From: Heptranchias perlo
Lineage: Eukaryota
Direction: 5' to 3'
NCBI RefSeq assembly: GCF_035084215.1
Contig: NC_090325.1
Span: forward strand, 82,956,001 to 83,020,000
Length of the DNA: 64,000 nt
In this document: in pieces, positions 17,536 through 26,900 of the stretch
Position numbering within the stretch: the first letter of the stretch is position 1
Layout: each line of letters opens with the position of its first letter
The notes under the pieces: model-generated
Databases searched by the model: none
Seen by the model: the letters and a program-made list of their open reading frames with translations, nothing else
What the model was told of the DNA's origin: nothing
Position numbers and translations under genes: made by a program

Positions 17536-19519
17536 TGAATGTACTTTTGGTTTATTTCTATTTTTAAAAAAAAGAAATGGACTTGTTCCTCATTTTCAAG
17601 TGCCAAGTAGATAAGGGTATGATATGACTTGCGTGATAGGACATCCCACACTTTTACTGCAGGAATACTGTTGGTTCAGTGCCAGTGGTAGTTGTCTGTA
17701 ATGTTGGGCACTAAATGTATAACATAAACAGTAAGAAATGGATTTTGAATAATGCTTAACTAAAGTGTGTTTTAAGGAGAAAAAATGTTTTGAAACATAA
17801 GCCTTTAGAAAAGAAGGTGGCAACTAGCCTTTTATTGATTTTCATTCAAATATTTGCGAATTTCAAAATAGCATGAATTTTAAAGAATAATCTGTGCAGT
17901 GAAGAAGTACTTCTAGTAATAAGTAACTTCTTTTAACATCACTCATATAATTTTAACAGTGCAGTAGAAAATTTTTGCTGTAGATCAGTATCCAGGAATG
18001 AAAAGATTATCGATTCCTATTTTAGTGCGGGAGCCAGAGTCTGTAATAAGCTTAGGGCAAATCAGGCCTCTACCTGACTTAGCGTGTCAGATGGTCTAAG
18101 AGTGCAGTATTCCATTGTAAATAATTTCTCCTCAGATAGAATTTTTGTAAACTGTGAGTGAGACATAAATGGAGGGGGAACTTATACAGAAGATATAATT
18201 TTCCCATTTAAAGTAGCATGCTAGTTCTTTGAATACAAACACACTTGCGAATATAACTAGTAATACTCTGGATGACAATATATGGAACATTACTTGTTTT
18301 AAATGTGATTGTCAGATGTGTATAATCAGTCTTTCAACCAGATAACTGTGCCCCTGACAAAGAAATTCAATTCTCCAGCCTCTACCTATTTCTAAAGTTC
18401 TGAATGCTCCCTTTATGTAAATGTAAGCTTCTTGTCAGGATGTGTTGACCATAATTAATGACCAATTTTATTTGGCTCACAATTAACTTTTAAACAAGCC
18501 AACCAGCATAAGAATGGCATTGGATTATTCCCACATTTGATTTAATTCATATTCTGCCATGCAGAAGACTGAGAATAACAATAATATAATGCAATAAACA
18601 GTGTCTGAAAATGTTTTTAATTCATTAGCATGGCAATTGATATATTTTGGCTGATAGCCTTTCATTCATTATGACATTGACATATTCTTACGCACTTAGC
18701 CAAAAAGTTGTACCATTTGTAAATTACTTCATTTCAGTGCCAGTAAATACAGCTTTGATTACTAGAAGTAGCAGTTTCTTTACCACAGCTCTCCATAACT
18801 AATAGAATAGTTGATGATATCTAGTAACAGCCGAGAATGAGGCTTGTTCCACTGACTGGGAAGGGTTGGCAGGATCCCCAATAGGATTTTCCCAGCACTA
18901 AGCTTGGGAAACCTTTTTTAAAATACATATTAAAAATACATAATAGTAAATAACAAGGGTCTTCCCAGCTAAATGCTCGTCCCCATTACATTTGGGATCA
19001 TTCGTGTTGATGTTCTCGACACCTTCAGTGCATTTAAGTCATTTTTGTAATGGGAGCAGAATTGAGCCATACTCCAAATGCGATCTGGTCAATGCATTGT
19101 GAAGCCTTAGTATAACCGCTATAGAATGTACTGTTCTGGCTATATACCCAACCTTTTATTTATTGCTTTGCCATCTATTCCCTATATATTTCTTTCAAAT
19201 CTTAAACTTACTTGACCTTATTGTTCCCAAAATAGACAATGCTATACCATTAGCTGTTGCTTAATGCACGGCCAGTATTATTTGAAAATCATTATATTGG
19301 TGCACCCTGTTTCATATCGGGCAGAAGGTAGTTAAATCATTTTAAAATTTATTTTGTAATGAACAAAAACAGTAGGAGAATCTTCAACTGCTTTGGTGGA
19401 TTTTACATTTGTTAGTAAAGTTTATGGCAGCACTGATGCCAACCCGAACCACCCTCTGTATGTTTTCTTGTTAGGAATCTTACAACACCACGTTGGAGTC
19501 CAACAGTTTTATTTGAAAA

Positions 19520-19556
19520 TCACAAGCTTTCGGAGGCTTTCTCCTTCGTCAGGTGA
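19520..19556 (-). ncRNA. Minimal type I hammerhead ribozyme motif, intact core
   Basis: UCAC-CUGACGA-A-GGAG-aaagc-CUCC-GAAA-GCUU-GUGA: stem I UCAC/GUGA, CUGANGA and GAAA cores, stem II GGAG/CUCC, and palindromic AAGCUU in place of stem III. Minimal hammerheads are an established feature of Penelope-like terminal repeats. Confidence 0.8.
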
Positions 19557-19811
19557 GTGTGGAATTCCTTGAAGGTTACCGCATATATAGTCAGAGAACA
19601 TTGCCTGGTGATTACAGATAATCTTTCCAACTGCCTGTTGTCAAGGCAATCAGACAGAGACACAGTAAATACAGGACTACTGAATATACAAACGGTCCGA
19701 ACCCAAAGACAGACAGAGAGAGAGAGAGAGAGAAACATCCGAAAGGAAGAGAAAGAGAGAGAATGACCAGTTGTATTAAAAACAGATAACTCTTTTTTTT
19801 CGCTGGTGGGG

Positions 19812-23656: not shown

Positions 23657-23918
23657 CCCCACCAGCGGAAAAAAAAGTTATCTTTTTAATACAAGTGGAC
23701 ATTCTCTCTCTCTCTCTCTCTCTCTCTCTTCCTTTCGGATGTTTCTCTGTCTGTCTGTCTGTCTGTCTTTGGGTTCGGACCGTTTGTATATTCAGTAGTC
23801 CTGTATTTACTGTCTCTATGTCTGATTGCCTTGACAACGGGCAGTTGGAAAGATTATCTGTAATCACCAGGCATTGTTCTCTGACTATATATGCGGTAAC
23901 CTTCAAGGAATTCCACAC

Positions 23919-23955
23919 TCACCTGACGAAGGAGAAAGCCTCCAAAAGCTTGTGA
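23919..23955 (+). ncRNA. Hammerhead ribozyme motif with mutated catalytic core (GAAA to AAAA)
   Basis: Same 37-nt motif but with G>A at 23944 (the G12 position), so predicted inactive. Confidence 0.7.
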
Positions 23956-26900
23956 TTTTCAAATAAATCTGTTGGACTATAACCTGGTGTTGTAAGATTC
24001 CTTACATTTGTCCACCCCAGTCCATCACCGGCATCTCCACATCATGTTTTCTTGTTGTAAAGGGAGGGGAAGAGAGTGTTGTTGCTTCTGTTAATGGAAC
24101 ACTTCTGCATATCTGGCATCCATTGTTCACATCAAAACCCCTCCCAGGCACGTAAAATTCAGTTCGATATAGTGTAAAGCACCTTCTACTCTAGCTCAAT
24201 AACATGACTTAACTTGAGCCCAAGAGACTGTTCCAGTGTCTGATTTTTCTGTTTCCTCTCGACAGTATGACCAAGATTGTGAATTTGTGATGTGGGCCTA
24301 ACACTTCACAAATGAGTGCTGCACAATCATGGCATGTTGCCTGTCTACTTTTTCTTTATTTTAAAAAAACACACAAAATGCTTATTTGGGCTGAAATAAT
24401 GTCAGTCAGTTTCTTTTAAAGTGGTTCCTTAATGCATGGTGACATGAATAATGAATACTTTTGCATAACAAAGCAACTAGCATATATAAAGTTTTTTGAG
24501 GAGGAGGATTGTTTTCTTTTCCTCACCACATACCATTCCTAAGTTCAGCAGGTGACCAACCATTGCTGCTTTTTAACCAGGTTCTAGAAAGTGTGTGAAT
24601 GGTCTGTATTGCTCACCTTTGTCATTGTCACCTTCACACCCCTAGGGTGAAATACTTCTCCTTCGGGCATAACTAAGACTAAAAACCTGCTATTTGGAGA
24701 ATTATGGGCATGTGCCCTTCCATTCTGTAGCACAACATGCTGGAGTGTCAACTTGATACTCCTGCAGAGTATTGTTTTAATAGCTTTTACATTGCTTGGG
24801 ACATTCTACTACGTTAAAGATGCTATATAAATGCAAGCTGTTGTTATTGCCTAAGAGGGTAAACTATGATAAAGGTAAAGAACTGGCATCAGCATAAGCA
24901 TGAATTTTTGTTCTGAAAACCATAAATCCCATCTTACAAGAATTTACAAAGTATATTATGCTGTTTAGGGAGACTGGATACTACGTTGTGTTAATATTAA
25001 CGTTAATGTTATGTAATTATGTAATGTGGTCATACTTGCACATGCAAATTAGACTTTCCCGTCAAACTCTCAACTATTAAAATTATCTTATAAAATATGG
25101 CGGTTATGAGCATGAACAGTGAGATATGGTAATTGTAATGGATTTAGATATGCAACTAAGTGGAATATAGACTTTTTAATGGAAGCTTGTACATTTTTAA
25201 GGGATTTTATTTTTAATTATTTAATAGTTTGGGCACTACTGCTAAGCTTCCTGGAGACTTATGTGACAGCAAATATTGAGGGTTTGTGTTAATGTAATTT
25301 TTATTATTGCTTAGAGATAGAAATGGAAAAAAATGACAATTGTAGTTAAGGCCACCCACATTAAACCAACTTTAGACAATGATCTGATGGGATGCTTTAC
25401 AAAACAATAAAATTCAGACTGTCTAAACCATAGTGGTATTCAATTTGCCTTTTTACATATCACCTATGTTAGAGGAATAATGCAATTTAAATATCTGTTG
25501 TACAACTAAACTATCATAATTTTGCTGAGAGTCATTTTAGGGTCTGGAGATTTTTTTTAAATCACTGCATTATTTTGGCTGTGATTTAATGACATTTCCC
25601 TCCATTGACTTGAAAAATCAAGTGTTTCCTATTTTGTTTTGTACTTTTCACCTGCTTCTCACTGTAAATCACTGAGACGTCAAGTGTAGTGATTAATTAG
25701 ACTGCACGTGCAAGTGCTTTTTTGTCACCTGTCAAGTTGTAAAGAAGATGCATTATTGGAGACTGAAATGCTTTTTAGTTCACTGAATTTCTCATTGGAC
25801 ATGCAGAGCAGCTTACCCACATTATCTGCTTTGTTTTTAGTACTTTCAGGTGCAGACTCAAATCTTTTCTTAAGTTCATAAAGACTGGTGTTTGGTTGGA
25901 ACAATTAACAGCTGTGGAGATCAGCAGTCAGATTTCTTAAATAACTTTCTTTATAGTAAAAACTAATTTTTGCATCTTGTGTAACAAATAGTTTGAATAA
26001 ATACTGGCCCCACATTAACTGAAAAATAAACATTTCAGTTGATCAAACTGAGAAATGGACTTTGTTGTTTCCTATCAGTGAATATTTCTTTTTTGAGCTC
26101 AAAATAAAATTAAATCAAGACTAATAGGTCGCACTGGCGTTTATCATTTTATCTTGAACTACAGTTATTTCCTCTCAAAGACTTAGTTGATTGCCTTTTT
26201 GTCACTAACTAAAGCACATGAAAGATATGTATTGTCAAAAAGTTAAATACTACATAATCTTTCAACATAGTTGAATCCCACAGACCATGAGCAAATTGCT
26301 TTATCCTGCATATAACCTAGCGCATACACAGCCATATCAAAAATATTTGTGTCTGTGTGTTCCTTCCTCATGTATTGTGTAATCAAAGTTGTCCAGTGAC
26401 TTTATAAAATATACAAGTGAATGTAAGCTTTTGAAAAATCAATAAAGGAAATTTAAAAATAATTCAATAGTTGACTGCTGGGCACTATTATGTTACAGAA
26501 GATTTCATTGTGAAATTAAACACAAAAATATAGGGGGGAGGAGAAGCACTTGTTAAGGTGACTAATGTCAGTGCTAGAAAACAGAACACGTTTTCCTTTT
26601 TGGTTACCTAACTGATAATTTTCTGATTTTGGACTCGCGACAAAGAGTCACGTCGTCTAGGGTATCAGAAATTCGGGTGCATATTGTGCATGACTTTCCA
26701 GCCATTAATTCAAATTGTCAGAAAATTCTGCACAACACCCGCTGAATTACGATATGTATGGTCAGACACTGCAGCTCCCCGCTAACATGCAAAGCCATAA
26801 AATTACCCTTGTAACGTTGAGGTAAAACGCACCCCAGTCACATTTGGCCAAGTAAAACTCCCCCTACAATGCCTCAATAATGCATCTTGGTTCCAACATT

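Follow-up and report, generated by a model that had tools for sequence, protein, structure and literature searches.

Canonical endonuclease-bearing (EN+) Penelope-like elements carry an inverted, 5′-truncated copy at their 5′ end and a one-sided tail of 30–40 nt, as described in the accessible parts of PMC8557442 (Fig. 2), PMC3846280 (Pen2a_Av) and PMC2377424 (Fig. 1C); the same parts report short target-site duplications (TSDs), partial tandems and, in the pseudo-long terminal repeat (pLTR) of A. vaga, a TATA box with an initiator. PMC8557442 treats the origin of the tandem and inverted structures and of the one-sided tail as an unsolved problem, and for Penelope-like hammerheads the role has been called unknown (PMC7761336). 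For the Anolis Poseidon protein PAc, the accessible text of PMC11167929 describes cleavage and extension of both target strands, two internal reverse transcriptase (RT) starts that bound the tail, a predicted dimer, a hammerhead beside the start of the open reading frame (ORF) and AT-rich targets. Pairs of minimal hammerheads on opposite strands, 100–700 bp apart and with an unpaired base before stem II and a palindromic stem III, were noted together with more-than-unit copies in PMC4209133, from which the circular-template proposal originates; its available part reports the pairs but gives for them neither TSDs nor rules for the ends, nor an explanation by run-off.

Here we analyse a Penelope-like element of the shark Heptranchias perlo that shares, or is predicted to share, the features listed above. 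The window, that is, the whole stretch of DNA under study, comprises 64,000 nt (NC_090325.1, positions 82,956,001–83,020,000) and contains four insertions, each built of two head-to-head arms. Since the genome (3.25 Gb) holds thousands of copies that are only a few percent diverged, the integration products can be counted, and the inverted form, so far described rather than counted in canonical elements, is the commonest product in our sample. We favour, at a probability of roughly 0.65, twin target priming on one RNA, followed by a repair step that would link the two cDNAs by their ends in head-to-head orientation. The basis for this reading is seen in the sequences: end positions, the pairing of one end of each kind, TSDs, identity between target and template, private variants, lengths that go together in the two arms, and an accumulation of 5′ ends between −118 and −135. 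Twin priming is familiar from the long interspersed nuclear element (LINE) L1, where the second target end primes on the same RNA and leaves an inverted segment with microhomology at the join; there the upstream position at which the second primer lands varies, and the two pieces have hardly any sequence in common. In the present element, by contrast, the two sites have constant positions with 38 nt between them, and the arms are copies of one and the same stretch. A search of titles and abstracts returned no paper linking L1 twin priming to Penelope elements.

A putative Neptune-type element with a predicted hammerhead

The natural unit measures 3065 nt, and a natural copy contains an 858-amino-acid frame with the motifs DKG, RYIDD and VYLIRC..WYIGET. 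As in EN+ Penelope-like elements, a single ORF thus combines an RT (RVT_1 match, E 3e-10), the DKG motif and, at its C terminus, a GIY-YIG endonuclease region. A Pfam search of the query ORF itself gave no endonuclease match; many of its homologues carry the PF01541 endonuclease domain. The sequence CRKGC sits between GIY and YIG and supplies the two cysteines of the CCHH type as defined in the accessible part of PMC8557442, and CHGNLCKTC forms a CX4CxxC linker ahead of the endonuclease, within the CX2-5CxxC definition given there for Neptune and Nematis. Because Penelope and Poseidon are defined by the absence of this linker, its presence points to Neptune or Nematis. From the linker motif we assign the insertions to a putative Neptune-type element with a 3.06-kb unit; Neptune and Poseidon are the clades reported from vertebrates in the available part of bioRxiv 10.64898/2026.07.22.740005. 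The closest named proteins are from sharks (79–95% identity), followed by turtles and invertebrates.

Upstream of the ORF start lies a predicted minimal type I hammerhead with a CUGANGA and GAAA core, stems I and II, an unpaired base and a palindromic stem III. Among 176 matches to a search pattern with fixed core, N7 is C in 147, G in 16 and T in 13; the stems are 94–99% paired, with changes that are mostly G-U and few double changes, and the palindrome AAGCTT (AAGCUU in RNA) is present in 174. Self-cleavage is predicted from this motif. An Rfam scan of the window returned no hammerhead but only microRNA hairpin matches below the gathering threshold, and a solved-structure search at E 1 found no match. 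The weak scores with microRNA-precursor models fall on small palindromes at 49786–49895, 2043–2117 and 47747–47852, which, if transcribed, would form long hairpins.

Four inverted insertions in the window

Positions in the element are numbered from the last base of the tail (0), negative values lying upstream; the four insertions are given in window coordinates. A sequence-only reading of the window had described four head-to-head insertions, each inside one TSD, and self-BLAST with a TSD search bore this out: in all four the 3′ ends of the arms point outward, the exact TSDs, in window order, are 13, 13, 11 and 12 bp long, and BLAST with a natural full unit matches no cluster in the window beyond these four. 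One arm of each insertion ends at the tail, 93 nt past the predicted hammerhead cut, as had been claimed, and the other stops earlier, at TSD-defined ends of −38, −42, −36 and −72 (−68 if 4 nt of target-template identity are counted).

The largest insertion, of 4.6 kb, follows a 13-bp left TSD (19460–19472, forward strand). Its tail-less arm (19473–21977, reverse strand) has its 3′ end at −42 and reaches −2702; it bears a 140-nt internal deletion near 21135, and its ORF contains a stop codon and a frameshift. A 9-nt unstranded junction insert (21978–21986) leads to the tailed arm (21987–24044, forward strand, −2056 to 0), in which a 5′-truncated RT and GIY-YIG ORF extends to 23656 and is followed by the 3′ untranslated region (UTR), the putative promoter and the leader. 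Within this stretch, all on the forward strand, lie a TATA-like box (23886–23893) 29 nt ahead of the predicted start, an initiator-like CCACACT (23913–23919) whose A at 23915 corresponds to −129, the probable transcription start and the place where arm 5′ ends pile up, and the predicted hammerhead (23919–23955; stem I TCAC/GTGA, core CTGACGA, unpaired A, stem II GGAG/CTCC, palindromic AAGCTT) with its predicted cut after 23951. The tail between the two putative priming sites (−38 and 0) occupies 24006–24044, and in tandem copies it finishes with the A of the start codon; the 13-bp right TSD (24044–24056, forward strand) overlaps the tail end.

Of the smaller insertions, that at 2005–2194 consists of a tail-less arm (2005–2071, reverse strand), a 17-nt junction insert and a tailed arm (2089–2193, forward strand), within a 13-bp TSD (1992–2004/2195–2207) preceded by one additional C. 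The insertion at 47278–47974 lies inside another repeat, with a tailed arm at 47278–47829 (reverse strand), a tail-less arm with an internal deletion at 47828–47973 (forward strand) and an 11-bp TSD (47267–47277/47975–47985). In 22 pairs the left and right flanks of this insertion adjoin in paralogous repeats that hold the 11-mer once, so that the TSD is a true duplication; for the other three insertions no empty-site paralogue was found among the sampled loci. The fourth, at 49790–49963, joins a short arm (49790–49839, reverse strand, end near −70) bluntly to a tailed arm (49840–49963, forward strand) inside a 12-bp TSD (49778–49789/49964–49975). The term 'ribozyme-tipped' applied to these insertions is apt for six of the eight arms, which keep the hammerhead core; both arms at 2005 stop at −104 and lack it, and in the arm ending at 24044 a G-to-A change has mutated the GAAA core as well.

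The palindromes might be assembly artefacts, or the small copies one unit that spreads as a fixed palindrome in the manner of a miniature inverted-repeat transposable element (MITE); some junction positions do recur, for example −120/−125. Yet the arms of the 4.6-kb copy are only 97.0% identical over 1677 nt and 95.6% over 205 nt, with 43 mismatches and different ends, and the 140-nt deletion in one of them is not expected of an assembly fold-back. TSDs flank the copies, junction positions and inserts vary widely, and head-to-head joints from other copies occur in public DNA contigs (sides of 20–26 letters), all of which makes this explanation extremely improbable. A MITE in the strict sense, one fixed terminal-inverted-repeat unit copied whole, was rejected because junctions and arm lengths vary among copies and the ends are unequal. 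The centre of the 4.6-kb copy (21972–21977) is covered at 100% identity by no public contig in four runs of filtered records from one sample, possibly of another individual; the contig over its left flank reaches just 27 nt into the element.

Sampled copies and their ends

A ribozyme 36-mer has 6,674 exact matches in the genome, a leader 31-mer 22,545 and the leader-ATG junction 171. We sampled position-ordered matches on one chromosome (30 loci and 60 regions from the 100 ribozyme 36-mer places listed, and 30 loci from leader 31-mer matches), two contiguous 100-kb blocks chosen without an anchor, and the 64-kb window. With nine natural reference copies, 156 clusters were reduced to 137 unique ones, and removal of 13 that touched the edge of a locus and 3 that lacked a 3′ end left 121 complete insertions. 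A second, partly different set of 104 inverted copies includes identity-ranked loci.

The 121 insertions divide into 86 inverted ones and 35 with a single arm. A copy with two arms can be matched by the anchor through either of them and is sampled about twice as often, which lowers the inverted share to about 55%; in the unanchored blocks four of five copies are inverted, and among the 100 matches listed all 29 close pairs are head-to-head. The suggestion that inversion is a regular product of integration is supported by these counts and by the TSDs. A TSD of at least 10 bp flanks 74 of the 86 inverted copies and 12 of the 34 single-arm copies tested, so that 74 of 86 TSD-bearing insertions are inverted, and two of those 12 single-arm copies retain inverted remnants (6 and 11 nt) of the other end. 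The uniform architecture of four out of four, correct for the window, does not hold as a rule in view of the single-armed copies. Small products prevail, with 51 of the 86 inverted copies shorter than 300 bp.

Both arm ends lie at fixed sites, as had been supposed. In the 104-copy set, where 92 copies have a TSD (11–13 bp in 65 of these), the end modes are 0 and −38. If the short class is taken as −27 to −50, then 70 of 73 inverted copies pair one tail end with one short end, 2 are short/short and 1 is tail/tail (binomial p 1.4e-17 against one half), a count over this sample that agrees with the one-sided tail of 30–40 nt in canonical elements. The tail continues directly into ATG GCT ACT in tandem copies, and its end is therefore the A of the ORF ATG; both sites are internal to the template, not only the second one as the sequence-only reading had it. 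In Pen2a_Av the tail ends 12–22 codons into the ORF (accessible part of PMC3846280), and PAc, from the Poseidon clade, likewise starts inside the ORF (accessible part of PMC11167929). Nine copies end 17–83 nt within the ORF instead of at 0 or −38 and mark minor priming sites (L236, L237, L253, L262, L264, L281, L282, L296 and L306).

Priming at the target

In the 77 clean canonical copies of the 104, target and template agree over a mean of 1.56 nt at the tail end and over 1.81 nt at the short end, compared with 0.67 and 0.84 nt in 3000 shuffles. At the five positions where the two template sites differ, tail-template letters are matched by 124 of 385 tail-end and 71 of 385 short-end target letters, and short-template letters by 153 short-end and 90 tail-end letters of 385. 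The targets of each end thus fit their own template better (Fisher p 1.5e-5 and 1.4e-6). At both target ends a C before and a T after the TSD boundary are favoured. Template-specific identity at both ends suggests two target-primed events with brief pairing. PAc, in the available part of PMC11167929, starts at sites that are not homologous to the cut DNA, whereas the identity here is 1–5 nt and template-specific.

This pattern also bears on the proposal made for rotifer Penelope elements (accessible part of PMC3846280) that an antisense transcript primes on itself and the resulting hairpin is integrated. Such a hairpin yields head-to-head geometry, but it leaves unexplained the template-specific target identity at both ends and the stops at a sense-strand promoter position described below; it also requires one arm to lie inside the other. 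We regard this route as very improbable.

Origin of the two arms

The two arms of an insertion share variants to a degree that points to one template source, as had been proposed. Of 131 doubleton alleles, 61 have both their occurrences within a single insertion, one per arm, where 1.8 would be expected, and arm divergence outside CpG sites is 2.0% within and 5.3% between insertions. An (AG)3 frameshift at 23016–23021 (forward strand), mirrored at 20447–20452, is common to both 4.6-kb arms and seen in no other insertion; 75 motif matches have (AG)2. Lengths are coupled as well, with 43 short/short, 22 long/long and only 4 mixed pairs, 3 of one kind and 1 of the other (p 8e-14), and 12 of the 22 long pairs agree within 1.3-fold (4.5 expected). 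A separate case is the copy at L141:2124-3567, whose equal arms (717/717) are 0.4% apart and 9% from the nearest other arm; it may be a young copy of a divergent donor or the outcome of recent conversion.

Shared variants could also be produced by twin priming on two RNAs of one donor locus, for instance paired through the palindromic AAGCUU of a dimeric hammerhead. The palindrome is nearly invariant in the motif matches, minimal hammerheads work as dimers (accessible part of PMC4209133), and no stretch of one RNA would need to be copied twice. We consider this unlikely, since a symmetric RNA pair offers no reason for the use of one site per end, and the near-equal long arms and the scarcity of mixed length classes stay unexplained.

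A fold-back, in which the tail-primed cDNA primes on itself and synthesis of the sense copy breaks off near −38 and switches to the opposite end of the target, with later central deletions making the arms unequal, would also account for shared variants, similar arm lengths and the overlaps found at 42 of 85 junctions. It needs the tail-less arm to be the shorter one at birth. Over 69 pairs, however, 36 have the longer arm on the tail-less side and 23 on the tailed side (23 and 11 among small copies); the tail-less arm exceeds its partner by more than 20 nt in 16 of the 69, the 4.6-kb window copy among them, and in such pairs neither is contained in its partner. Without a later loss of the centre, neither arm can then have been copied from the other, and that either arm may be longer argues against a simple fold-back. 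Moreover, one copy joins a 125-nt short arm to an 11-nt tailed arm, and while 20 single-arm copies end at the tail site, 14 have only the −38 end. The remaining junctions are blunt (8) or carry inserts (35), and 5 of the 16 inserts of at least 6 nt have a local template of at least 7 nt, which resembles end joining. Locally templated inserts are expected of polymerase-theta end joining. Both sites act as RT starts in vitro (accessible part of PMC11167929). Fold-back is thus rather improbable, and the sampled arm lengths do not support it as the mechanism. Nor do they support a fixed order of firing: either arm may be the longer, and single-arm copies end at either site.

5′ ends and tandem copies

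On the first pass, 74 of 141 arms with clean junctions that reach −118 stop by −135, at a rate of 0.029 per nt at −118 to −135 compared with about 0.001 beyond −170. On the second pass, after a whole unit, only 4 of 49 tandem arms stop in the same interval (p 1e-8). If structure in the RNA were the cause, the stop ought to reappear each time the interval is copied; its rarity on the second pass argues against a stall on the ribozyme fold. Leader folding was not significant (z −1.09). A stop confined to the first pass instead suggests an RNA 5′ end on one class of template and none on another. A TATA-like box starts 29–30 nt ahead of the −129 A in 81 of 120 arms that reach upstream and 36 nt ahead in 14, and a subfamily with an unlike spacer preserves the distance from TATA to start. 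Copies of about 210 bp are likely run-offs at the transcript 5′ end. An extra G ahead of the −129 A, of the kind that an RNA cap might leave at arm 5′ ends, occurs in 16 of 34 cases, several of which are templated subfamily variants or derive from the opposite arm.

The 90 leader-ATG junction loci examined comprise 66 tandems, in accordance with the pLTR of Penelope-like elements, 15 direct jumps and 9 that end within the ORF start; in the 60 short regions, tandem status was judged from about 170 nt of ORF. Position −135 is passed by 45 of the 66 tandems compared with none of the 15 copies after a direct jump. In the direct jumps (L226, L229, L230, L233, L234, L240, L243, L255, L285, L288, L293, L294, L303, L304 and L309) a short first piece is followed by a restart 17–154 nt inside the ORF and then a run back through the leader. 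The restart distance grows with the reach of the first piece (Spearman 0.68, p 0.005, n=15), as if the RT re-captured the same tethered RNA. One locus, L268-L269 (G000:C6:66252001-66270000), has two tandem units 3036 nt apart and an inverted arm exceeding one unit; in its subfamily the 3′ UTR is unlike between about −297 and −128, a divergence that reaches as far as the predicted transcription start.

Other features of the window

A LINE-type remnant at 56572–59061 and 61906–62408 contains pieces of an apurinic/apyrimidinic (AP) endonuclease (E 5e-12) and an RT (E 2.5e-9), and its 3′ part recurs at 61906–62408 and 9299–9608. Old, C/T-skewed dispersed repeat fragments, 64–80% identical, lie at 3606–4440, 15263–16458, 34955–36153, 42569–43793, 48023–48553 and 60027–60965; one of these repeat families hosts the insertion at 47278. 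An isolated, near-perfect 43-bp palindrome at 4915–4957 is unrelated to the Penelope-like element.

Discussion

Under twin target priming, a dimer of the protein would place one nick in each strand of the target, with about 12 bp between the nicks, and each target 3′ end would prime RT at one of two internal RNA sites, the ATG or a site about 38 nt upstream, through 1–5 nt of pairing. One RNA molecule would template both arms, and the two cDNA ends would be joined head-to-head via microhomology or templated insertion. With transcription starting near −129, priming in the leader would run off and yield the ~210-bp copies, and long arms and promoter-bearing tandems would come from a second, end-less template, which may be a ribozyme-made circle, a multimer (for which the two-unit locus is a candidate) or a read-through RNA. 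Failure or trimming of one primer would leave a single-arm copy, mostly without TSD. The anole Poseidon protein, which cleaves and extends both strands, has two internal starts bounding the tail and is a predicted dimer, provides a biochemical precedent in the accessible part of PMC11167929.

Several observations weigh against this reading. The 35 single-armed copies are a substantial minority, with the inverted share perhaps near 55%; among the inverted copies, 11 have one of their ends away from both main sites, and 2 others are without a second 3′ end. The rank correlation of long-arm lengths is just 0.16 (earlier set, n=17). Shared variants could stem from arm-to-arm gene conversion, for which a conversion-tract test, a weak one, gave a ratio of 1.2 (n=47), or from a pair of RNAs with a single locus as their source. 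Palindrome centres are known to undergo asymmetric deletion, which, if it came later, could turn a fold-back product into the shapes seen here. The transcription start near −129 is a prediction. As to the circle as second template, only 1 of 157 arms stops at −100 to −86, around the ribozyme cut; in the available part of PMC11167929, mutation of the ribozyme left insertion in vitro normal, and none of the RNA reads had its end at the cut.

Since head-to-head arms with a one-sided tail have been published, the shape is not new. Inverted copies that have a TSD and a tail on one side are in print in the accessible parts of the papers cited, as are paired hammerheads on opposite strands and the use of two internal starts, and the architecture singled out by the sequence-only reading, although present, is typical of Penelope-like elements (PMC8557442, PMC3846280) rather than special to this family. 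The mechanism put forward in the sequence-only reading was largely right, with the order of events unproven. The main text of the PAc paper, in its accessible part, leaves inverted insertions untreated (PMC11167929), whereas here a rule of one site per end emerges. Our literature search, with subscription papers and older Penelope reviews out of reach, found no count of one site per end, no evidence from shared variants and lengths and no first-pass-only stop. What appears to be new is thus mechanistic and drawn from the genome: the one-each pairing of ends, the variants and length class shared by the arms, and the stop confined to the first pass.

These counts predict one start per target end, one RNA, run-off at its 5′ end and no stop on a second pass, predictions that are addressable in the published in-vitro Poseidon system. 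The insertions seed the genome with many long inverted repeats. More tentatively, and as a reading that we hold less likely than not, we suggest a two-template life cycle, in which every insertion would start from two primers extended on one RNA by an asymmetric dimer; on capped linear mRNA both would run off the 5′ end, in the manner of retroviral strong-stop DNA, and scatter ribozyme palindromes of about 210 bp over the genome, and only ribozyme-made circles of the 3.06-kb unit would rebuild active, promoter-bearing copies. If true, this cycle would give the Penelope-like hammerhead its missing function and would unite the tail, the inverted pLTR and the partial tandem under one mechanism.

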